Assembly: GCA_049583675.1 (NCBI GenBank)
Contig: JBAUWG010000584.1
Span: 1 to 44,271, forward strand
Direction: 5' to 3'
Source: Desulfobacterales bacterium
GTDB taxonomy: Bacteria; Desulfobacterota; Desulfobacteria; Desulfobacterales; UBA11574
Length of the DNA stretch: 44,271 nt
Shown: positions 10,409 through 32,543 of the stretch, piece after piece
Position numbering within the stretch: position 1 is the stretch's first letter
How the letters are laid out: the number at the start of each line of letters is the position of its first letter
Made by a program: the position numbers and the translations under genes
The notes under the pieces: generated by a model
What the model was told of the DNA's origin: nothing
The model's database searches: none
What the model saw: only the letters and a program-made list of their open reading frames with translations

Positions 10409-12445
10409 TCAAGCGGCTTTTTCGATTTTTGCCGCACAGACTTTAAACTCCGGAATTTTGGCAATCGGATCAAAGGCGGAATTGGTCAGTATGTTGGCCG
10501 GACTTTCTGCAAAATGAAACGGAACGAAAAGCACGCCGGGCTTGACCTTTTTGCCGACTTGGGCAACAGCTTCCATCTCTCCCCTGCGGGTGGCAAGATG
10601 CACCCTGTCACCGTCATTAACGCCCAACGTTTTTGCGTCTTTTAGGTTGATTTCTACGTATCCGGTTTTCTGCTCGGTGTGCAAATGCGGGGAGACGCGC
10701 GTCATGGTGCCGGTATGGAAATGAGCGAACATCCTGCCGGTGGTGAGCCAATAGGGGTATTCGTCATCCGGCATCTCCGCAGGATCAAGATATTCAATGG
10801 CATGGAATAGGCCCTTTCCGCGGGTGAATTGATCTTTATGTAAAAACGGCGTACCCGGATGCTCGGCGTTCGGGCAGGGCCATTGAAGTCCGTCAAGACC
10901 TATCCTTTCATACGTCATTCCGCCGTAACTCGGTGTCAAAGCGGCCATTTCGTTAAAGATTTTTTCAGGACTCTCATAATTCATTTCATAGCCCATAGCT
11001 TTAGATAATCTGGAAATGATTTCCCAATCGTTAAGCGTATTTTCGATGGGATCAATGGCTTTATTCACCTTCATACAGCGTCGTTCGGTATTGGTAAATG
11101 TCCCTTCCTTTTCGGCCACCGAAACCCCGGCAAATACCACATCCGCCTTCTGTGCGGTTTCAGTGATATAAATATCCTGACACACCAGGAACTCAAGATT
11201 TGCAAGGGCCTTGTCGAGATGGTTCTGGTCTGGATCGCTTACTTTCGGATTCTCACCGATGACATAAAGGGCCTTTAATTTACCATCAATCATGGCTTGA
11301 ATCATATCGGTGACGGTATAACCAATCTTGTTCGAAAGCGGTTTTCCCCATGCTTTGGAAAATTTTTCAGTGTTGGCCTCAACGGTCACCGGCTGATAGG
11401 CAGGAAACACATTGGGCAAGCCGCCCATGTCGCAGGCGCCCTGAACATTGTTTTGGCCTCTCAAGGGATTCACACCGCCGCTTTTGACGCCCACATTTCC
11501 GCAAAGCATAGCGATATTGCAGCAGGATTTTACATTGTCCACGCCTGTGGTGTGCTGGGTAATCCCCATGGCATAGAGTAATGCTGCCGGGGAATTAGTG
11601 GCATAAAGCTCGGCCATTTTTTCAAGATCACTTTGCGCCACACCCGTGATGGTTTCAACCTTATCCGGTGTATACGACTCGACCACCGCCTTAAAATCAT
11701 CAAACCCCTCGGTTCTATTTTCAATGTAAGTTTTGTCGTGCCAGCCGTTCTTGAGAATAATATGCATCATGCCGTTAAGCAACGCCACATCACTCCCAAG
11801 TCTATGATGGACGACAACATCCGCAAAACGGGCCATCTGGATATCTCTGGGATCGGCCACAATGAGTTTGGCGCCTTTTTCCTTGGCCCTGAAGACACGC
11901 CGGGCAATGAGCGGATGGCACGCGGATGTGTTCGAACCGATGATAAAAATAGACGCTGAATCTTCAAATTCGGCAATGGAATTGGTCATGGCCCCACTTC
12001 CAAATGCAGCGGCAAGACCTGCCACCGTGGAGGAATGTCAGAGCCGGGCGCAGTGGTCCACATTGTTGGTCCCGATCACTGCTCTGGCAAATTTTTGGGC
12101 CAGGTAATTCTCTTCATTGGTGATTTTTGCGGAAGCCAGCACACCGACACTATCCGGCCCATGGTCATTAATGATGCTCTTGAATTTGTCGGCCGTCACT
12201 TGTATGGCCTCGTCCCATGTCACTTCCTGCAATTCTCCGTTCTTTTTTATCAAAGGTGATTTAAGACGCTTCTCGCTGACGACATGTTCATGAAGGTTCC
12301 ATCCCTTAATGCAGAGTCTTCCCTGGTTCACCGGATGGGTTTTCATGGGCATGGTATCAATAAGCCGGCCGTCCAGCACTTGAAAAAGGACACCGCAACC
12401 GGTGCCGCAATATGAACATGTTGAAGGAATGATTTTAAAATCCAT
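10409..12445 (-). CDS. fdhA: Formate dehydrogenase catalytic subunit, selenocysteine-containing, cytoplasmic (FdhF-like; Mo/W-bis-MGD)
   Basis: Track ORFs 12038..12445 and 10409..12025 are one gene. Reading the minus strand gives ...NNVDHCARL-TGA(12040-12038)-HSSTVAGLAAAFGSGAMTNS, the canonical FdhA Sec site. The N-terminal CSYCGTGCG...C motif binds a 4Fe-4S cluster. There is no twin-arginine signal. Total length is about 678 codons. Confidence 0.95.
12007..12027 (-). promoter_or_regulatory. SECIS-like hairpin for the fdhA UGA
   Basis: The minus-strand RNA is CGGUGGCA-GGUCU-UGCCGCUG. It forms an 8-bp stem (2 G.U pairs) with apical loop GGUCU, starting 10 nt after the UGA. The core GCAGGUCUUGC resembles the E. 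coli fdhF SECIS apex GCAGGUCUGC. Confidence 0.75.
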
Positions 12446-12543: not shown

Positions 12544-13341
12544 TTAAATGGGTTTGGGTTTTAGTGTAACCTCTTCTCCCAGCATGTTAAACGGTGATTG
12601 GTCTGAACGGGTTCCGGTGGTGTAATCGAATACATCGGTTACGATTTCATTGACTTTTCGATAGAGCAGCCGCAAAGGAATATCAACCGGGCAGGCATCT
12701 TCGCACAGACCGCAATCAATACACCGGCCCCCCATATGAACCGCCCGAACCAGATGAAAAATCGGAACTTCCGGCGGAATACCGCCGGTGGCGATCAGGT
12801 CGGTGTGTTCAAGACTGCATTCCTTGCAAAAGCATACCGGACAAATATCGCGGCAGCCGTAACATTTGATGCATTTTTGAAGTTCATACATCCACCGGTT
12901 GAATCTTTCTTTCTGGTTGAATTCCTCTGCTGCTTTAACTTGCATGTTGTTGTCGATGCCGATCATCTTTTTAATTGGCGGGGCAAGCTCCGGCTCCAAA
13001 TAGGAACAATCGCCGTGTTCCTTGAGGGTGGACGGGCAGCAGTTAACTCCGATGGTTTTAATGTTTTCCGGGTTCAACTGGTTCCAGATATAAAGAACAT
13101 TCAAGGCCCGTTGATTGCAATCCCTTGTTAAAATTCCTATTTTCACTTCCTTATGTTCCGCGGCGATTTTTGTGGCCATTTTTTCAAGGGGATACCTAGC
13201 CTTTCCGACAATCAAATCATTAAGGTCATCCGGATTCTTTTTGGTGAAGCAATAGGGCAGCGGGTGCCCCTGAATCATTTTATATCCTAAAAATATGTCG
13301 ATGTGACCTTGTTCAAGCCACTGTTTGATTTGTTCCTGCAT
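12544..13341 (-). CDS. 4Fe-4S dicluster electron-transfer protein (AsrA / sulfhydrogenase-beta HydB-like)
   Basis: 265 aa. Motifs are CIKCYGCRDICPVCFCKEC (the CPxCxC signature of the AsrA/HydB-beta family) and CIDCGLCEDACPVDIP. The start codon lies 2 nt after the mvhD stop. Confidence 0.65.
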   Translation of the reverse strand: MQEQIKQWLEQGHIDIFLGYKMIQGHPLPYCFTKKNPDDLNDLIVGKARYPLEKMATKIAAEHKEVKIGILTRDCNQRALNVLYIWNQLNPENIKTIGVNCCPSTLKEHGDCSYLEPELAPPIKKMIGIDNNMQVKAAEEFNQKERFNRWMYELQKCIKCYGCRDICPVCFCKECSLEHTDLIATGGIPPEVPIFHLVRAVHMGGRCIDCGLCEDACPVDIPLRLLYRKVNEIVTDVFDYTTGTRSDQSPFNMLGEEVTLKPKPI

Positions 13342-13342
13342 A

Positions 13343-13825
13343 TCATCCTCCCTCTATGCTCGCAGTATCTTGCGCTGCTTCGCTTAAACTCATTACGGCG
13401 GACATGTCAAATTCGCCGGACAGAGGGCTGGGGCCTAATGATTTTATTTTATTTGTAAAATGGGTGACAACCTGCACAAATTTTTGGGCTTCTGCCGAAG
13501 ATATCCAGTCCAAATGCAGCCGGCCTTCCAATCCCATAAAGGCCAATAGTTCCTGCAGAAAGGTCATCCGTTTGATCGTCATGTAATTACCATACAGGTA
13601 ATGGCAGTCGCCGACATGTCACCCGCCCACCAGGACTCCGTCGGCACCGCTTTGAAAGGCTCTTAAAATGTGATGCGGCGACACCGTGGCGGAACACATG
13701 ACCCGAATAGGACGAATATTGGGCGGGTATGCCAGTCGACTGACACCCGCCAGGTCCGCCGCGCCGTAGGCACACCAGTTACACATAAATGCGATGATTT
13801 TCGGCTCGAATTTATCCTCGTTCAC
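13343..13825 (-). CDS. mvhD: MvhD/FlpD-type (methyl-viologen-reducing hydrogenase delta subunit-like) protein, selenocysteine-containing
   Basis: Track ORFs 13619..13825 and 13343..13582 join in frame through TGA 13621-13619. The joined sequence reads ...[19 protein letters not shown]...[58 protein letters not shown]... It matches the MvhD GCHxGDCHY core with Sec in place of the first Cys. Total length is 160 codons. Confidence 0.85.
13586..13602 (-). promoter_or_regulatory. SECIS-like hairpin for the mvhD UGA
   Basis: The minus-strand RNA is AUUACC-UGUAU-GGUAAU, a perfect 6-bp stem starting 16 nt after the UGA. It is short and AU-rich, so weaker than the other two. Confidence 0.45.
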
Positions 13826-13846: not shown

Positions 13847-16800
13847 TCAGGCGCTCAATGCGCTCTTGATCTGGGCGTAAAGTTGATTGTTGTTAAAGCC
13901 CATGAGTATGGGCGCCTCCGATGGGCATACCGCCGCGCAGGCACCGCACCCTTTGCACAGGGCCGCATTGACCTTGGCCACATATTCTTGACGGTCGAAA
14001 GTGATGGCGCCATAGGGGCAGACATTGATGCATCCCAGACAGCCCGAACACAATTCAGCCCGAATATCCGTGACAATGCCGCCCACCTTAATGCTCTCCA
14101 AGGACAGAACAGTTGCCGCTCTTGCCGCCGCCGCCTGGGCCTGGGCAATGCTTTCTTCGATGGGCTTGGGATAATGGGCCATGCCGCACAAAAAAATACC
14201 GTCATTGGCAAAATCTACCGGCCTCAATTTTTGATGGGCTTCCAAAAGCCATCCATCCGAATCCAGAGGGACTTTGAAGAGCTGGGCCAGCGATTGATCC
14301 CAATGGGAGACAATGGCGGAGGCCAAACATAAAATATCAGCTTTAACGGCCAATTTTCGGTTGAGTATCCGGTCCGTAAATTCAACGATAACCTGATCGC
14401 CGTTGGCCGTTACCTCGGGTTTTTGATCGACGGAGTACGAAAAAAAGAGCACCCCGGCCGCTCTTGCCTCGCGATATAAATCTTCTTTTTTACCGTATGT
14501 CCGAATATCCCTGTAGAGAATCGCAACATTTATATTTGGATTTCTTTTTTTAAAGTCAATAGCACTTTTGACGGAATGCGTACAGCAAACTTTGGAACAG
14601 TAAGGCCGCTCTTTATCTCTGGATCCCACACACTGAATAAACACTACATTTTCGCTCCGGTCAAGTCTCGGGTCGTTTTTTTTGAAAAGTTCGTCGAGTT
14701 CCAGCAGGGTCAACACAGCATGGTGTTTCCCATAAAGGTATTCGTCGGGTTTATATTCTTTGGCACCGGTGGCGATCACCGCCACGCCATGCTCGATGGT
14801 TTGTGTTGCGTTTTGGCTGTGAAGATCGGTTTTGAAGTTACCGACAAAGCCATCCACATTGCTGATGCTGGTTTCGGTATGAACGGTAATACGATCTTCG
14901 GATTTAACGGTATGAATCAGTGTTTCAACAAAAGCCCCTACATCTTCGTTTTGGGGGGTCTTGTTCAGCATTAAAGCATTTCCGCCCAAAGCGCCGGATT
15001 TCTCCACAAGATCCACCGGATATCCCTGATGTGCCAGCGAAACCGCGGCCGTCATTCCGGCAATTCCTCCGCCGATCACCAACGCGGAATGGGATACCGG
15101 GAGATCGGTCTGCTTCAGGGGCGCTAAAAGGTTGGTTTTCGCAACCGCCATTCGAATGAGGTCCTTGGCTTTTTCAGTGGCGGCGTCCGGATCGTTTGCA
15201 TGGACCCAGGAGTCATGATTCCGAATATTGGCCATTTCAAAGAGATACTTGTTGAGACCCGCGTTAATCAGGGTTTCCTGGAATAGCGGTTCATGGGTTT
15301 TGGGAGTGCAGGCGGCCACAACCACGCGGTTGAGCCCCTGTTGATTGATAATATCGGATATTTTATCCTGGGTATCCTGGCTGCAGCTGAAAAGATTTTC
15401 TTCGACATACACCACATTAGGCAAGGTTTTGGCGTACTTTACCACCTCCGGCACTTTGACCACGCCGCCGATGTTGATCCCGCAGTTGCATACGAACACG
15501 CCGATTTTAGGCGGTTCTTCGCAGACATCTCTTTCAGGGGGGAGTTCAAGGATTTTGGTCCGGGTATTGCGCGCCGATGCCAAGTGTTCTGTTGCCGCAC
15601 AGGCCGAGGCGCTGGCTTCCATCACCGACTGGGGAATATCTTTCGGGCCGGTGAACACACCGCAAGCATAGATGCCTTCCACAGAAGTCCCTACGGGATG
15701 GAAACTATCGGTTTTTGTAAAGCGGTATTCATCGAGATCGATGCCGATACGTTTGGAAAGATCTGCAATATCCTGATTGATTTCAAGGCCTACGGACAGA
15801 ACGAACATATCGAAAATTTCGTCTCTGATGGTTCCGTCCTCCTCGATGTATCGAACCGACACATCATCGGTTCCCGGAACCGGGGCAATGGTGTGAATTC
15901 GTGATCGGACGAATTTGACCCCTTGCCTCCTGGCATTCTCATAATATTTATCAAAATCTTTGCCGTGGGTTCGCATATCCATGTAAAAAACCGCGCAGTC
16001 GAGAGGGTTCTTACTGTGTTCCGTTGCGATGACGGTCTGTTTAATGGCATACATACAGCACACCGATGAACAGTAGGCATTATCACAACGGTTGAGGTCC
16101 CTGGAACCGACACATTGCAACCAACCGATTTTTTGAGGTTCCTTGTGATCGGATGGTCTGACCAAATGACCTGAAAAGGGTCCGGTGGCGGAGAGAATCC
16201 GTTCAAATTCCAAAGAGGTAACCACATTGGGCAGATGGGTATAGGCATAGGTGTCAAACCGGCTGGGGTCAAAGGCGTCAAATCCGGGGGCCAGGACAAT
16301 GGATCCAACGTCAAGCTCGACAATTTCATCTTTCTGTGAATGATCGATGGCGCCGACCGGACAAAAATCGGCGCATATCTTGCATTCGCCGGTCTTGAAA
16401 TGAACGCATTTGCTCCGGTCGATGGCGGGCGTATTGGGAACGGCTTGGGCATACGGCACATAGATCGGTTTCCGGCCTTTAAGACCGGCATCATATTCCG
16501 AGGGAATCTTTTTAACCGTGTAAGTGGTAATGTTATCTTTGATCTTATCCAGGGTAATGTGCCCTGTGGGGCAAACAGTAGCACAGGCGCCGCAAGCCAT
16601 ACAGACATCCGTCTGAATGTGAAAGGGGGTGTCCACTTTCATCTCCACCCCTCGGCCGGTGAGGCTGATGGCGCTGTTGCCCATTCTTTGACAGATTCTT
16701 GTACAGAGGCCGCAAAGGATGCAGGTGTCACCTTTAATCTTAAAGCGTGGTTTTTCGATACCGTATTTTGCCGCAAGCGCCTTTATGACAGGGATTTCCG

Positions 16801-17089
16801 GACAGCGGGCCAGCAACAACTCAACATTTAGTTTTCGACCTTCGTGTACTGTTTCCGTGTTGGTTTTGACTTCCATGCCTTCCCAGATGGGATAGTTGCA
16901 TGCGGTGACAAACCGAGTCCGGCGACCGTCAAAAAGCTCCACGGTGCAAAGTCGGCACATTCCGGCGGGCTCGAGTGCTTTATGATGACACAGCGTTGGA
17001 ATTTCAACCCCATATTTTTCAGCAACTTGAAGGATATACTGCCCTTCTTCTCCCTGAACTTTTTGTCCGTTGAGCTTAAACGTAATCAT
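13847..17089 (-). CDS. Multidomain FeS flavoprotein: HydA/NuoG-type N-terminus fused to a truncated HdrA unit and a second HdrA-like FAD unit
   Basis: 1080 aa.
- Residues 1-about 95: 2Fe-2S domain (MITFKLNGQKV...PTLCHH...GMCRLCTVEL).
- Two 4Fe-4S motifs (CILCGLCTRIC, CMACGACATVCPTGHI).
- HdrA inserted-ferredoxin second half and thioredoxin-reductase-fold core (RKPIYVPYAQAVP, CVHFKTGECKICADFCPVGAI, VGSIVLAPGF, LEFERILSATGPFSGH, WLQCVGSRD..YCSSVCCMYAIK, MDMRTHGKDF, YACGVFTGPKDIPQS).
- A Cys-rich domain (IGVFVCNCGINIGG...VVVAACTPKTHEPLF).
- A second complete FAD unit (ALVIGGGIAGMTAAVSLA...FIQCVGSRDKERPYCSKVCCTHSVK...GIFLCGMAHYPKPIEES).
- A C-terminal 2x4Fe-4S domain (CSGCLGCINVCP, CKGCGACAAVCP). 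Confidence 0.85.
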   Translation of the reverse strand: MITFKLNGQKVQGEEGQYILQVAEKYGVEIPTLCHHKALEPAGMCRLCTVELFDGRRTRFVTACNYPIWEGMEVKTNTETVHEGRKLNVELLLARCPEIPVIKALAAKYGIEKPRFKIKGDTCILCGLCTRICQRMGNSAISLTGRGVEMKVDTPFHIQTDVCMACGACATVCPTGHITLDKIKDNITTYTVKKIPSEYDAGLKGRKPIYVPYAQAVPNTPAIDRSKCVHFKTGECKICADFCPVGAIDHSQKDEIVELDVGSIVLAPGFDAFDPSRFDTYAYTHLPNVVTSLEFERILSATGPFSGHLVRPSDHKEPQKIGWLQCVGSRDLNRCDNAYCSSVCCMYAIKQTVIATEHSKNPLDCAVFYMDMRTHGKDFDKYYENARRQGVKFVRSRIHTIAPVPGTDDVSVRYIEEDGTIRDEIFDMFVLSVGLEINQDIADLSKRIGIDLDEYRFTKTDSFHPVGTSVEGIYACGVFTGPKDIPQSVMEASASACAATEHLASARNTRTKILELPPERDVCEEPPKIGVFVCNCGINIGGVVKVPEVVKYAKTLPNVVYVEENLFSCSQDTQDKISDIINQQGLNRVVVAACTPKTHEPLFQETLINAGLNKYLFEMANIRNHDSWVHANDPDAATEKAKDLIRMAVAKTNLLAPLKQTDLPVSHSALVIGGGIAGMTAAVSLAHQGYPVDLVEKSGALGGNALMLNKTPQNEDVGAFVETLIHTVKSEDRITVHTETSISNVDGFVGNFKTDLHSQNATQTIEHGVAVIATGAKEYKPDEYLYGKHHAVLTLLELDELFKKNDPRLDRSENVVFIQCVGSRDKERPYCSKVCCTHSVKSAIDFKKRNPNINVAILYRDIRTYGKKEDLYREARAAGVLFFSYSVDQKPEVTANGDQVIVEFTDRILNRKLAVKADILCLASAIVSHWDQSLAQLFKVPLDSDGWLLEAHQKLRPVDFANDGIFLCGMAHYPKPIEESIAQAQAAAARAATVLSLESIKVGGIVTDIRAELCSGCLGCINVCPYGAITFDRQEYVAKVNAALCKGCGACAAVCPSEAPILMGFNNNQLYAQIKSALSA

Positions 17090-17116: not shown

Positions 17117-18970
17117 TTATTTAATGAGTATGGCATCGAATTTACAGGCATCGTAACAGATGCCGCACTTTATGCATTTTTCCACGTCTAAAAGGTGCGG
17201 TTTTTTCTTTTCACCGGTAATGGCTCCGTCGGGACATCGTTTTGCACAAAGGGCGCAGCCGGTGCAGGCTTCTTCATCAATCTCATAATGAAACAAAGGT
17301 TTACACACGCCCGCAGGACATTTTTTGTCTTTGATGTGGGCTTCATATTCATCCCGGAAATAGAGTATCGTCGTCAGCACGGGATTGGGGGCCGAAGTCC
17401 CCAGTCCGCAAAGTGAAAACTTTTGAATCATCATCCCAAGATTTTCCAAAAGCTCGATATCGCCTTCTTTGCCGTTTCCTTGGCAAATATCGGTCAGGAT
17501 ATCCAGCATCGCCGTAATCCCCTCACGGCAGGGATTACATTGACCGCAAGATTCTTCTTTTAGAAAATCCAGAAAATATCGGGCCACGTCCACCATGCAT
17601 GTGTCCTGATCCATCACAATCATGCCGCCGGAGCCCATGATGGAACCGACCTTTGTCAGCTCATCAAAATCGACCCCCAAATTTAAAAATTGTTCCGGAA
17701 TGCATCCTCCCGACGGTCCCCCGGTCTGGACGGCTTTGAATTTCTTTTTGTTTGGAACCCCGCCGCCGATGTCGTAAATAATCGTGCGCAGCGTCGTCCC
17801 CATCGGCACTTCGACCAACCCCGTGTTTGTGACCTTGCCGACCAGTGAAAAGATTTTGGTGCCTTTGCTTCTCTGAGTTCCGATGGCAGCATACCAATCC
17901 GCACCCTTGTCGATAATCACCGGCACATTGGCCCAGGTTTCGACGTTGTTCAAATTCGACGGGTTATTTCGGAATCCTTTTTCTACGGTATGGATGTATT
18001 TGGCCCGGGGTCGTCCGGGCATCCCCTCCAGAGACGCCATCAATGCGGTGGATTCACCGCACACAAAAGCGCCCCCGCCGCGACTGATATGAATGTTTAA
18101 ATCGAATCCAGAGCCCATGATATTCTTGCCCAGAAATCCGAGTTCTTCAGCTCGCCGCAAGGCAATAGATAAATTTTTTACCGCCAGCGGATATTCGTGT
18201 CGTACATAGACATAGCCTTCATTGGCGCCGATGGCAACGGCACCGATAATCATACCTTCCAAAACCAAATGAGGGTTGCCTTCCAAGAGACTGCGATCCA
18301 TATAAGCGCCGGGATCGCCTTCATCGGCATTGCAGATGACATACTTGTCGCCGTCATGCCTGCGACAGGTTTCCCACTTGATGCCGGTGGGGAAACCACC
18401 GCCGCCGCGACCCCTCAAGCCGGATTTTTTGACTTGATCGACAATTTCTTCGGGCGTCATATCAAACACTGCTTTTTCAAGCGCTTTATATCCGCCCACC
18501 GCAATATAGTCTTCAATGCTGGTAGGGTCGATGGCGCCGTTATTCCCAAAAATAATTCTCTGCTGAAGTTTGTAAAAAGAAACATCCTTTTCATGTATAA
18601 TTTTTTCTTTTGTCGCAGGATCCTTATAAACGAGCGACGGAACCAGTTCCCCATTCTTGATAGTTTTTTCAACAATTTCAGGAATATGTTCCTCTTTAAT
18701 TTGTGGATAAAATATGCCTTCCGGATGAATCACCAAAATCGGTCCTTTCTCGCAGAAACCGTGGCAACCTGAAAGCTTTACATCCACCTCCTTTTCCAAA
18801 CCATGCTTGGCCAACTCTTGAATTAACGAATCATGCACTTTTGCAGTTCCATAGGCACCACATCCCGAACCTGCACAAAGAGAAATTAATTTCTTTTTCC
18901 GGCTTTTTTGTTCAGTCAAAAGAGAGTTTCGATATGACTCCAGTGCCAATCTATTTTCTAATTTTGCCAT
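17117..18970 (-). CDS. NuoF/HydB-like NAD(P)H-binding FMN flavoprotein with N-terminal 2Fe-2S and C-terminal 2x4Fe-4S domains (Bfu/HndC architecture)
   Basis: 617 aa. Motifs: a thioredoxin-like 2Fe-2S domain (CAGSGCGAYG...SGCHGFCEKGP), GLRGRGGGGFPTGIKW, ICNADEGDPGAYMDR, ESCGQCNPCREG, and terminal CTGCALCAKRCP and CIKCGICYDACK. Confidence 0.9.
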   Translation of the reverse strand: MAKLENRLALESYRNSLLTEQKSRKKKLISLCAGSGCGAYGTAKVHDSLIQELAKHGLEKEVDVKLSGCHGFCEKGPILVIHPEGIFYPQIKEEHIPEIVEKTIKNGELVPSLVYKDPATKEKIIHEKDVSFYKLQQRIIFGNNGAIDPTSIEDYIAVGGYKALEKAVFDMTPEEIVDQVKKSGLRGRGGGGFPTGIKWETCRRHDGDKYVICNADEGDPGAYMDRSLLEGNPHLVLEGMIIGAVAIGANEGYVYVRHEYPLAVKNLSIALRRAEELGFLGKNIMGSGFDLNIHISRGGGAFVCGESTALMASLEGMPGRPRAKYIHTVEKGFRNNPSNLNNVETWANVPVIIDKGADWYAAIGTQRSKGTKIFSLVGKVTNTGLVEVPMGTTLRTIIYDIGGGVPNKKKFKAVQTGGPSGGCIPEQFLNLGVDFDELTKVGSIMGSGGMIVMDQDTCMVDVARYFLDFLKEESCGQCNPCREGITAMLDILTDICQGNGKEGDIELLENLGMMIQKFSLCGLGTSAPNPVLTTILYFRDEYEAHIKDKKCPAGVCKPLFHYEIDEEACTGCALCAKRCPDGAITGEKKKPHLLDVEKCIKCGICYDACKFDAILIK

Positions 18971-19000: not shown

Positions 19001-19486
19001 TTAAGAAACGTGTTGGTTATCATATTCATCGATGATTTTTACCACACTGGAACGGTTTAAGCCTCCGTGGGTATTCTGATTGACGGTGATAACCGGCCCG
19101 GAGGCGCAGCACCCGACACATCGAACAGCTTCAAGGGTAAACAGATGATCATCGGTGGTTTCGCTCTCTTTGACATGGAGGCGATTTTCCAACGCTTCCA
19201 TAATTTTTTCAGCACCTCGTACATGGCACGCCGTGCCGGTGCAGACGCTGACGATGTATGTTCCGCGAGGTTCAAGGCTGATCGTCTTATAAAAGGTGGC
19301 AACGCTGTAAACCAGGCTTGGCTTTATGCCAAGCTTATCGACCAGAACAGATACCACTTCCGGCGGAACATAGTGATAAATGTCACTGATATCCTGCATT
19401 ATCATCAACAAGGCTTCACGATCATTATGATACGCTTCGATAATTTCGTCTATCTTCTGCCAATCGATGTCCATTTTATTTTCCAT
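19001..19486 (-). CDS. NuoE/HydC-like 2Fe-2S thioredoxin-fold subunit
   Basis: 161 aa with ALLMIMQDI..YVP, VCTGTACHVRGAEKI and CVGCCASGPVITVN motifs. A GGGG-type RBS lies upstream. Confidence 0.9.
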   Translation of the reverse strand: MENKMDIDWQKIDEIIEAYHNDREALLMIMQDISDIYHYVPPEVVSVLVDKLGIKPSLVYSVATFYKTISLEPRGTYIVSVCTGTACHVRGAEKIMEALENRLHVKESETTDDHLFTLEAVRCVGCCASGPVITVNQNTHGGLNRSSVVKIIDEYDNQHVS

Positions 19487-19619: not shown

Positions 19620-20003
19620 TTAACCGTGTGCCTGATACATCACCGGACAGTTTTCAACGCAATTACCGCATCCCGTGCAAAGGTCCATGTTGATGCTGCG
19701 AGCATGCTTTCTAACCTTTACTTTAAAATGCCCTGCAGATCCTTCAACAGATTCTAGATCCGCATATGTGATAATCTCAATATTCAGATGCCGGCCGACC
19801 TCGACCAGTTTCGGGGAGATAATTCACATGGCGCAATCATTGGTGGGGAACGTCTTGTCCAGTTGGGACATTACCCCGCCGATGGAAGGGGATTTTTCTA
19901 CGAGATAGACGTAATATCCTGCGTTGGCGAGATCCAGAGCGGATTGCATCCCTGCAATTCCACCCCCTAAAACCAGAACCGATCCGATTACATCATTGGC
20001 CAT
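19620..20003 (-). CDS. hdrA: HdrA N-terminal fragment protein (FAD GxGxxG fold plus Sec site plus one 4Fe-4S motif), selenocysteine-containing; not in the supplied ORF track
   Basis: Codon-by-codon translation of the minus strand from ATG 20003 gives [60 protein letters not shown](TGA 19826-19824)[70 protein letters not shown](19622-19620). The RBS GGAGGA (20016-20011) lies 7 nt upstream. The context TFPTxDCxM-U-I matches the known HdrA Cys/Sec position. Confidence 0.8.
19791..19808 (-). promoter_or_regulatory. SECIS-like hairpin for the hdrA-fragment UGA
   Basis: The minus-strand RNA is CUGGUCG-AGGU-CGGCCGG. It forms a 7-bp stem (2 G.U pairs) with a GGU-containing tetraloop, starting 15 nt after the UGA. 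Confidence 0.6.
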
Positions 20004-20326
20004 CGTTCGATCCTCCTTAAAAAGAACGGTGTTGAGGGAATTCCCCTTATTGTTGTTGAAAAAATCAAAGGTTTTACCTATAAGAAATAGTAAAATTTGT
20101 CAATAAAATTCTATGGGTAAGACAATGTGATATGCCCGGAAGTCTCTGTTTTCACATAAAAGACTGATTGCTGAAGAATTGGATCCGAGAGTCCGGTCAA
20201 TATTTTGTTTTTTTGCAGTCGTTTTTCTTTTTGTGAAACCGTATCTTTCAATTGGATGGAAATTATGCTACAAGTCCTCTATTTGAATGAAAGGGTATAT
20301 ATAAACATTATTTTAAAGGTTCTATC

Positions 20327-30468: not shown

Positions 30469-32250
30469 TTAAAATCCCTTCGATGGTAAGGGTTCGCCTT
30501 TTTCATCCCATCCGCGTTCTTTATAATATTCGGATAGAAGCTGTTTCATTTGATCTTCGGTAATAATTTTATTGGTTTCAGGCAGCGCTTCTCTAAAAAA
30601 TCTTCGTGGGATGCAATCATCTTCTGGCGTGAGACCTTCTCTTAAATTAAACCGTCTGATGTTGTCAAGAATGTCACCGGCAATGGTTCGCATTCCTTGA
30701 GCGGTGAGATCCATGCCGGTTGTTGTTCGAATTATGGCGGAAAGTTCATCCCACTGGTAAAGATCCCGATAAAAGCGGCACAAAATCAGGGCATCAAAAA
30801 TCGTCAGACGGTCTTCCCATTCTGTAAACATTTTGGCCTTTCCGTCGATCCGGTCAGGTTCGATGAGCCCGGCCAGTTCGGGTTTGTAGAATGTGGCGCG
30901 AAGGTGGCAGGCGCCTCTGGCTGATGTCCCATAAGCCAGACCCATTCCTTTCAGCACCCGAGGGTCATAGCCTGCCGGCTCGAGGCCTTTGACATGAATG
31001 GCTTGATCTTCCATGTTCCAGGCTTTGGCCGCATATTTGATTCCTCTGGCCAGTACATCGCCGATACCGCGACGCCGGGCGGTATCATCTAAAAGCCTTG
31101 CCACGGCATCGACCTGGCCATAGTCCAGCGTCTCATCGATTTTTCCTTGTCGGGAGGCTTCGATGGCCAATGCCGCCAGATTGCCTCCGCTGATCGTATC
31201 CATGCCGAGGCGATCGCAGATATCATTTAAATAAGCGATTTCCTCGATGCTGTCGATTTCACAAAGACCGCCGAATGCGTAAATAGTTTCATATTCCGGC
31301 CCTTCGACCTTAAGTCCTTTGTGCCTTCCATTTTTGACGGTGGAGAGTCGACCGCAGGCCATAAAACATTTCAGGCAGGCATGGGGTTGGACATCGCATC
31401 TTTCATGAAGGGCCCGGGCATTGATTTTATCGGCATGTTCAAATTGCCCCTTTTTCCAGTACCGGGTGGGGAATCCGCCGGCCTTGTTCATGATATCCAC
31501 CAACATGGGCGTACCCATGCTTTTGTATGCTTTTACGCCGGCATCGTCTTTTGACCGCTGTGCTATGGATTTGGCGAAAGTTTTCATCCCATCGACGTCG
31601 GCAAATTCCTTTTTCCGGTTTCCCCAAAAGGCAAAGGCTTTGATATTTTTTGAACCTGCGACCGCCCCAACACCGGTTCGGCCCGCACTGCGCCAGTAAT
31701 CGTTTTCGAGGACCGCAAAACTGACCTTGTTTTCGCCGGCCGGTCCGATACAGACCACCCCGCACCTTTTCGCGTCCGGACGATGTTGTTTGATCCACGC
31801 CTTGACGCGGTCTTCTGTTTCATATGTGTCTTTTCCCCAGAGATCATCAGCCGGATGGAACCACACTTTTTCTTCTCCAATCTCTATCCAGACAGGGCTT
31901 GGGGCGGCACCGCCGATCATGACGGCATCGAATCCCGTAGCACTCATGTGGTCGGCGACGGTTCCTCCTGAATAAGATTCGGAGAAAAAGCCGGTCTGGG
32001 GAGACTTGGTGAATACCCCGTGACGGCAGGAGCCCCAGATCGCGCTCCCGGTCAACGGACCGATGGCAAATATCAAATGATTTTCAGGGCTCAACGGATC
32101 CACGCCCGGCGGATTGTGGCGAAGCAACAGATCGGTGGCGAGCCCTCTTCCGCCCAGATTGGTTTTCAAAATAAAGTCATCTATTGGCGCGATGCGATAC
32201 ATTTCTTTATTCAAATTAATTTTTAGAATTTTTCCATAAAATCCGTACAT
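30469..32250 (-). CDS. Aldehyde:ferredoxin oxidoreductase (tungstopterin AOR family)
   Basis: Track ORF 30469..32265. The preferred start is ATG 32250 (MYGFYGKILKINL), preceded by AGAGGA. AOR N-terminal domain: GGRGLATDLL, GPLTGS. Catalytic domain: motifs including CLKCFMACGR, EGPEYETIYAFGGLC and GACHLRA. Confidence 0.9.
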   Translation of the reverse strand: MYGFYGKILKINLNKEMYRIAPIDDFILKTNLGGRGLATDLLLRHNPPGVDPLSPENHLIFAIGPLTGSAIWGSCRHGVFTKSPQTGFFSESYSGGTVADHMSATGFDAVMIGGAAPSPVWIEIGEEKVWFHPADDLWGKDTYETEDRVKAWIKQHRPDAKRCGVVCIGPAGENKVSFAVLENDYWRSAGRTGVGAVAGSKNIKAFAFWGNRKKEFADVDGMKTFAKSIAQRSKDDAGVKAYKSMGTPMLVDIMNKAGGFPTRYWKKGQFEHADKINARALHERCDVQPHACLKCFMACGRLSTVKNGRHKGLKVEGPEYETIYAFGGLCEIDSIEEIAYLNDICDRLGMDTISGGNLAALAIEASRQGKIDETLDYGQVDAVARLLDDTARRRGIGDVLARGIKYAAKAWNMEDQAIHVKGLEPAGYDPRVLKGMGLAYGTSARGACHLRATFYKPELAGLIEPDRIDGKAKMFTEWEDRLTIFDALILCRFYRDLYQWDELSAIIRTTTGMDLTAQGMRTIAGDILDNIRRFNLREGLTPEDDCIPRRFFREALPETNKIITEDQMKQLLSEYYKERGWDEKGEPLPSKGF

Positions 32251-32543
32251 GCTCATCCTCTTCATTTTTTAAACAAAAATCCTGGCCAAGGGGCCGTTCC
32301 AGAAGAAATTTGCTTTACTGAGTGTTCGTTTTAGAAAATCAGAAATAGGAATTGGAAAATAGATAACTGCGTATGGACGTAAATATAATTAGAAGATGAG
32401 GAGGTTAGGAAGTTAGAAGTTTGGAAATCACGTAAATGTGCTGACCTTCTAATCTTCTTGCTTTCTTATTTTTCGAAATATTTGTGTTCATTCGTATTCA
32501 TCCATGCTTTCCTCTTTCCTTTTTGCTCTTTTCTATTAGGAAC

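Follow-up and report, generated by a model that had tools for sequence, protein, structure and literature searches.

The HdrA of Methanococcales is a known selenoprotein. Selenocysteine (Sec) has also been described in HdrA, HdrL, MvhD, FdhA and BamE of Desulfobacterales (PMC2702500, PMC5109826), in Desulfotignum nuoEFG has been found adjacent to hdrA and mvhD (PMC4046663), and Bfu (HydABC/NuoEFG-like) modules have been described, with Bam as the one HdrA-containing case (PMC9304861). In BamE of the class II benzoyl-CoA reductase (BCRII), TrxR1 binds the bifurcating flavin adenine dinucleotide (FAD) with Lys280 and carries Cys59 and Cys62, which form a disulfide, while TrxR2 is non-bifurcating and has Gln768 reported at the flavin-lysine position of the second unit; the proposed low-potential route leads from FAD through the Cys59-Cys62 disulfide to E3 and on to E5/E6 of the inserted ferredoxin domain, and the coupling of Bfu with an HdrA-type system was called unprecedented (bioRxiv 10.64898/2026.04.10.717634). 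Here we analyze contig JBAUWG010000584.1 of a Desulfobacterales bacterium (assembly GCA_049583675.1, GTDB lineage UBA11574; its whole 44,271 nucleotides are referred to as the window), in which the minus-strand interval 19620..20003 very probably holds a genuine, translated selenoprotein gene. Its product of 127 residues would be a split-off N-terminal portion belonging to the first HdrA unit, the bifurcating-type one, of a BamE-like double HdrA whose remainder is encoded further downstream. Searches of the open-access literature returned no description of a split 127-residue Sec subunit, of an architecture with the cassette inside the gene, or of a form fused to NuoE.

The locus resembles the Geobacter metallireducens class II benzoyl-CoA reductase (BamE with BamF/G/H/I) in its fused double HdrA, its Sec-containing MvhD-like adaptor and its NuoE/F/G-like (Bfu) module. 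BamE, however, is one polypeptide and BamI a separate one, whereas in the window the Bfu cassette appears inside the gene, leaving a 127-residue Sec subunit and a remainder fused to BfuA. The BamE pair is Cys and Cys as described, while the second residue of the pair in the window is Sec, and Bam contains the BamB/C tungsten enzyme and BamD, whereas none of BamB/C/D was found in the operon, which carries an FdhB-like protein and FdhA. HdrL of Desulfobacterium autotrophicum HRM2 (PMC2702500) is likewise a Desulfobacterales selenoprotein, large and HdrA-like; mvhD, and frequently fdhB/fdhA, lie downstream of its gene, and a NAD(P)H-oxidizing module sits immediately behind the same cluster motif, the first in the inserted ferredoxin domain; that insert is GltD-like (Fer4_20 + Pyr_redox_2) within one chain of ~1480 residues, whereas the insert in the window amounts to three genes' worth of Bfu and breaks the frame. 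The methanogen HdrA and Fdh-Hdr supercomplexes (5odc, 7bkb, 8rvu) have homologous MvhD-like and FdhB-like connectors, but their HdrA is a single 650-residue chain, dimeric and associated with HdrBC, as opposed to the two fused units of the window, one of them split, with an added Bfu module and without HdrBC. Finally, Desulfococcus multivorans also has UGA codons with selenocysteine insertion sequence (SECIS) elements in HdrA-family genes of Desulfobacteraceae (HdrA, dmul_C02770/80; BamE, dmul_C24500/10), each gene bearing two locus tags owing to the UGA, but these were described as ordinary HdrA and BamE, with neither a separate small subunit nor an interposed nuoEF (PMC5109826).

Translation of the minus strand gave a frame of 127 sense codons, open from the ATG at 20003-20001 to the TAA at 19622-19620 except for a single in-frame TGA at codon 60 (19824..19826), with the Shine-Dalgarno sequence GGAGGA (20011..20016) 7 nt upstream of the start. 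A sequence-only reading of the same DNA had proposed this frame and ribosome-binding site, and both were correct when re-read; its statement that the interval contains only antisense open reading frames (ORFs) was mistaken, since the mechanical ORF list does include a minus-strand ORF of 59 codons (19824-20003). Because that list stops there, the gene seems to be absent. The product contains the GGGIAG FAD-binding beta-alpha-beta fold, the segment DKTFPTNDC57-A-M-U60 and one CxxCxxCxxxCP cluster motif, and it ends 7 residues past the CP, in agreement with the features read earlier from the letters; it thus has both the N-terminal GxGxxG fold and the DKTFPTxDCxxC/U segment of the HdrA family. 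With U replaced by C, it matched the HdrA chains 8rvv_A, 8rvu_a, 5odc_A and 7bkb_A with E values of 1e-46 to 4e-39, far beyond chance, over HdrA residues ~142-256, a region that covers both sides of the UGA and is 54-60% identical to methanogen HdrA. UGA-60 pairs in this alignment with the second Cys of the DCSMC motif of the solved chains. The product does not hold the full HdrA domain set in one chain: it scored 163 bits against the NF040770 cut-off of 1100 and spanned profile positions 138-257 of 777. These alignments confirm, at the level of sequence, that it represents the N-terminal portion of an HdrA unit, namely the first (TrxR1-like) one.

Decoding of UGA-60 as Sec would be helped by a SECIS-type hairpin, CUGGUCG-AGGU-CGGCCGG (minus strand, 19791..19808), which starts 15 nt past the UGA, within codons L66-R71. 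The 7-bp stem with its AGGU loop, also noticed in the sequence-only reading, lies at exactly that distance and occurs once in the window, where chance would give 0 matches. We compared 49 distinct TGA-bearing with 34 distinct Cys-bearing sequences from related loci. The 18-nt element CTGGTCGAGGTCGGCCGG was identical and at the same distance in 48 of the TGA-bearing sequences, the 49th being one base off, and was found in none of the 34 Cys-bearing ones, in which the same residues are spelled in 32 ways; immediately beyond the element, synonymous positions are variable in TGA- and Cys-bearing sequences alike. In L022, from a Candidatus Adiutrix metagenome-assembled genome (MAG), a TGC form retains an element one base off, CTGGTCGAGGTCGGGCGG, and because it is still only one base from the SECIS element this suggests a recent replacement of Sec by Cys.

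Reading of the UGA as Trp or Gly (genetic codes 4 or 25), or its bypass, would agree with the W recorded at this site in 25 of the 120 best database clusters, Cys being recorded in 93. These W records are most likely TGA codons translated by gene callers under an alternative code. TGA is the ordinary stop of 11 of the 32 genes of the window, which therefore uses the standard code with local recoding at three sites of one operon. Moreover, in the loci examined the homologous residue is Cys and never a genomic Trp codon, the SelB-type hairpin with its GGU loop is strictly tied to the TGA, and the FdhA of the same operon has a classic CARL-U-HSS Sec site, so that insertion of an amino acid other than Sec is extremely improbable. 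Public records of the Sec form (the P0019 cluster, P0123-P0136) comprise pieces of 54-68 residues, named 'hypothetical protein', '4Fe-4S binding protein, partial' or 'heterodisulfide reductase subunit A', and others of 133 residues with W.

A protein search with the small product returned 3608 relatives, of which the best 120 clusters (69-94% identity) were examined; they measure 120-205 residues (median 133) and all end 6-30 residues past the CP motif. Pairwise ratios of nonsynonymous to synonymous substitution rates (dN/dS) between the small gene of the window and those of other split loci were 0.04-0.11 overall, with 0.02-0.07 upstream and 0.03-0.13 downstream of the UGA, and by this measure the half past the UGA is under strong purifying selection. 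The same result bears on the possibility that the small gene is a decaying remnant of hdrA left by a rearrangement, with no translation past the TGA. Such a remnant would account for the stop codon that interrupts the ORF, for the coverage of only ~115 of ~650 HdrA residues and for the annotation of Sec forms as short pieces or hypothetical proteins. It accords poorly, however, with the constraint downstream of the TGA, with a frame that is intact in all split loci examined (and uninterrupted in the Cys versions), with more than 100 distinct metagenomic clusters of the same length and end point, and with a hairpin that is invariant only where the TGA is present; furthermore, the first unit of the fusion protein would otherwise be without an FAD-binding fold. 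We consider a decaying remnant very improbable. Together with the two further Sec genes of the operon described below, the Cys at the TGA site of homologues, the TGA-linked hairpin, the ordinary use of TGA as a stop and the purifying selection past the UGA bear out the hidden selenoprotein gene that the sequence-only reading had proposed.

The gene order small gene, nuoE, nuoF, fusion of ~1087 residues and FlpD/mvhD recurs on long contigs of several lineages, for example in L001 (1.2 Mb), L003 (GCA_976602765.1) and L004/L005, and split loci in which a stand-alone small protein of 120-150 residues lies ahead of nuoE, nuoF and a fusion of ~1085 residues occur in many Desulfobacterota and in other phyla. 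P0105, the small protein of the long-contig split loci, carries the NCBI name of a candidate division WOR organism. At least 598 relatives were confirmed in a scan that took a single genome for each species; the 80 best were kept, and 84 loci, including L001-L005, were classified by architecture. Unsplit double HdrA proteins of ~1010 residues, mostly with TGA, were encoded in 24 loci (among them a Desulfosudis oleivorans MAG and Desulfoluna spongiiphila), and 29 loci encoded proteins of ~1480 residues of the HdrL type known from D. autotrophicum, in which Fer4_20 + Pyr_redox_2 are inserted behind the first cluster motif. Twelve loci were split as in the window (7 with TGA, 5 with Cys), and in nine the fragment was in frame with NuoE and followed by nuoF and the fusion gene (8 with Cys, 1 with TGA); the last group came from Bacillota, Spirochaetes, Cloacimonadota and Fibrobacterota, with one archaeal locus. 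The Cys forms of these fragment-NuoE fusions measure ~290-315 residues (L024, L031, L033, L040, L051, L070, L080, L084). The remaining ten loci, such as L047 and L020, were unclassified or cut by a contig end; in L047 (10000-10972) the N-terminal piece of HdrA, with its Sec, is joined to a polyferredoxin (324 residues in all) and followed by an fdhA homologue, with the remaining HdrA units after it.

Residues 1-120 of the small product are 74% identical to residues 1-120 of the unsplit homologue L013, residues 155-1074 of the fusion protein are 55% identical to L013 residues 101-1007, and the two segments taken together are colinear with unsplit homologues of 1014 residues. By eye, HdrA homology in the fusion begins at KKIPSEYD, the counterpart of KKIVDTYN in L013; since this lies right behind the CP of L013, the break between fragment and fusion is clean. 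Aligned with full-length HdrA, neither fragment nor fusion has the whole domain set, which the two make up only jointly; this supports the reading that the fragment carries the piece missing from the fusion. The occurrence of unsplit, split and NuoE-fused forms among relatives supports, as an evolutionary reading, the earlier proposal that an hdrA was split by a nuoE-nuoF-hydA' cassette, and the conservation of the split, of its TGA or Cys codon and of purifying selection in relatives favors a functional fragment over the remnant that was to be guarded against. On this comparative evidence, the small protein is a conserved subunit family derived from an old, widely inherited split, and the retention of the split in many anaerobic bacteria therefore marks it as a working subunit rather than a decaying remnant.

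Directly after the small gene, as in all split loci, comes a gene for a NuoE/BfuC-like [2Fe-2S] subunit of 161 residues (19001..19486, minus strand as for all genes of the operon), the one that is fused to the fragment elsewhere; no terminator was found between the two, and promoter-like hits there were at background level. It is followed by a NuoF/BfuB-like flavin mononucleotide/NADH subunit of 617 residues (17117..18970) that has a [2Fe-2S] domain at its N-terminus and a 2x[4Fe-4S] domain at its C-terminus; it matches the B subunits of bifurcating enzymes over their full length (7t2r_B, 9mqx_B, 8a6t_B). The next gene (13847..17089) encodes the fusion protein of 1080 residues, for which an exact look-up returned no record and which joins a NuoG-like module to two HdrA-like units. 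Its NuoG/BfuA-like module (residues 1-181; 16547..17089) is complete by itself, with a single [2Fe-2S] motif and with CxxCxxCxxxC twice, at C123 and C163, and residues 18-181 align end to end with residues 21-186 of the stand-alone NuoG-like chain 9mqx_A, including CILCGLCTRIC and CMACGACATVCP. The sequence-only reading had noted that CMACGACATVCP occupies the position of the fragment's motif; this stands as a matter of position but not of replacement, as the alignment shows it to be the second of the cluster motifs native to the NuoG/BfuA-like module and no substitute for that of the fragment. The Bfu subunit set is therefore represented by the NuoE-like protein, the NuoF-like protein with its extra N- and C-terminal cluster domains and a BfuA that combines a single [2Fe-2S] motif with two of the [4Fe-4S] type.

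The remainder of the first HdrA unit occupies fusion residues 182-520 (15530..16546), with the second motif of the inserted ferredoxin domain (C228), the cluster motif CVGSRD...CSSVCC, Lys350 within CCMYAIK and the C-terminal FAD-binding part; fusion residues 155-450 align to HdrA 246-517. The second unit (residues 521-1080; 13847..15529) begins with a cluster domain and ends with a ferredoxin domain, and between them lies a TrxR2 domain whose own GGGIAG is at residue 673; residues 521-757 of this unit align to HdrA 6-243, and residues 933-1079 to HdrA 510-654. A motif search of the 1080-residue protein detected neither a GxGxxG nor a CxxC/U pair in the first unit, and its sole GxGxxG is that of residue 673 in the second. 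Fragment and fusion together thus present the features of a BamE-type double HdrA, namely tandem units with a CxxC-type pair and a flavin lysine in the first. In all of the architectures, CC(M/T)YxxK has a nearly invariant lysine in unit 1 and a variable residue at this position in unit 2, which matches the bifurcating TrxR1 and non-bifurcating TrxR2 of BamE. K841 of the fusion (CCTHSVK) lies at the flavin-lysine position of the second unit, where unsplit homologues have E or D; we had considered it as a mark of a second active flavin and dropped this because the position is variable across the family.

These complementary gaps point to the small subunit completing the first unit of the fusion in trans. 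It would assemble with fusion residues ~182-520 and supply the only GGGIAG FAD fold of the unit, the redox-active C57-x-x-U60 pair and, for the inserted ferredoxin domain, the first CxxCxxCxxxCP motif. The fusion would bring the second motif of that domain, the CVGSRD...CC cluster, K350 as the flavin-N5 lysine and the FAD-binding part at the C-terminal side. Because the NuoG-like module already owns two cluster motifs, the motif of the fragment is the only available partner for C228-x7-C-x2-C-x3-CP of the fusion and is probably needed to pair with it; two [4Fe-4S] clusters are accordingly predicted to be ligated by both chains, and the FAD and both inserted-domain clusters would sit at the interface between them.

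Alternatively, the small selenoprotein could be real and act alone or with another partner, such as NuoE only or as a redox sensor, and not complete the first unit of the fusion. Its fusion to NuoE, and not to the HdrA remainder, in several phyla is in line with this, as is the model of the Cys homologue P0004, built in place of the small Sec product, which as a stand-alone chain was only moderately confident (predicted local distance difference test, pLDDT, 70). The model places the Cys pair at the start of helix 56-71 and, superposed on HdrA chains, reached template-modeling scores of 0.67 (TMq) and 0.14-0.22 (TMt), corresponding to the first fifth of HdrA only. It is, however, disordered at 45-57 and 117-127, where contacts with cofactor and partner would be expected, and the small protein is without the C-terminal half of any FAD-binding domain. 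The exact colinearity with unsplit proteins also speaks for the fusion as partner, as do the flavin lysine and cluster motifs kept in the first unit of the fusion, which would be useless without an FAD fold, and the NuoE-fused forms, which share an operon with the fusion protein. A role apart from the fusion is in our judgment improbable.

For the assembled first unit, C57-x-x-U60 would be the counterpart of Cys59-Cys62 of BamE. Since the BamE route uses Cys59-Cys62 and unsplit homologues have C57/U60 and K279, U60 may be placed in the low-potential relay as the selenenylsulfide-forming partner of C57. The split itself may have originated by insertion of a complete nuoE-nuoF-nuoG' (BfuC-B-A) cassette directly after the first cluster motif. 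By position, the BfuA clusters would extend from the inserted low-potential ferredoxin domain.

Downstream of the fusion gene, an MvhD/FlpD-like gene (13343..13825) with an in-frame TGA (13621-13619, VGG-U-HVGDCHY) is probably the second selenoprotein gene of the operon; it scored 135 bits with the VhuD model, and ORF callers divide it into pieces of 68 and 79 residues. A 265-residue Fe-S protein (12544..13341) follows, whose C-terminal 110 residues correspond to the Fe-S part of the methanogen formate dehydrogenase beta subunit (9t1s_M, 8rvu_E and 7bkb_E, E values of 6e-32 to 3e-26), and then the third Sec gene, for an FdhA-type molybdopterin formate dehydrogenase of 678 residues (10409..12445; TGA 12040-12038), with a GGUCU-loop hairpin from 13 nt past the UGA and ORF-list pieces of 135 and 538 residues. 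By analogy with the methanogen Fdh-Hdr complexes, FdhA, the FdhB-like protein and MvhD would lie on the usual input side. The small subunit, BfuC, BfuB, BfuA::HdrA'::HdrA, Sec-MvhD, the FdhB-like protein and Sec-FdhA may thus form one soluble complex that links formate/CO2 to NAD(H) and ferredoxin via two coupled bifurcation modules. Elsewhere in the window, ~10 kb from the operon and separated from it by unrelated genes, an AOR-family gene (AFOR_N + AFOR_C, 598 residues; 30469-32265, minus strand) of the same enzyme family as BamB adjoins a branched-chain amino-acid ATP-binding cassette transporter.

On a broader view, which we put forward tentatively and at slightly less than even weight, the inserted ferredoxin domain of HdrA would have, in the loop that follows its first cluster motif, a general 'socket' that has been repeatedly filled with NAD(P)H modules, GltD-like in HdrL and, in the window, an entire Bfu cassette. 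With Bfu as the insert, two chains would share the bifurcating flavin site and two [4Fe-4S] clusters, the relay Sec would reside on a separate 14-kDa subunit, and the loci would represent a widespread, undescribed soluble double-bifurcation (Bfu + HdrA-type) family outside aromatic-ring reduction, tied to formate dehydrogenase in the window.

Several observations weigh against the decoding, the relay or the complex as proposed here. The fold of the 71-nt region was unexceptional compared with shuffles (z = -1.0), and the argument from the hairpin therefore rests on its comparative conservation and not on energy. Rfam gave no matching SECIS family for either the window or the interval (the only hit being a chance one to Xist), nor were selA, selB, selC, selD or tRNA-Sec found in the 44-kb window, although the operon's two other Sec genes, one of them with the classic FdhA site, are indirect support for Sec machinery in the genome. 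The equivalence of C57-x-x-U60 with the BamE pair is drawn from motif and from the residue numbers of the preprint, not from alignment with the BamE sequence. Formate dehydrogenase is replaced in other split loci by a tail of FlpD, a 315-residue Fe-S protein, a 350-residue Fer4_22 protein and a 281-residue FAD/NAD oxidoreductase with DHODB_Fe-S_bind (L001:15139-18384; L003:15024-18204), so that the partner module is exchangeable. The operon has no HdrBC- or BamD-like high-potential exit, so the overall reaction is uncertain.

For annotation, the locus is a case of three Sec genes in one operon that standard pipelines cut short or miss. The family to which it belongs shows the pairing of a Bfu with an HdrA-type module, interleaved at the level of the gene, in many anaerobes and with partner enzymes other than those in BCRII, and the unsplit, split and NuoE-fused forms found side by side illustrate clearly how a gene can be split by the insertion of a cassette. 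A detached 14-kDa subunit bearing the FAD fold and the Cys-x-x-Sec pair could be labeled, swapped and mutated separately, and in this way could probe the debated role of the pair.

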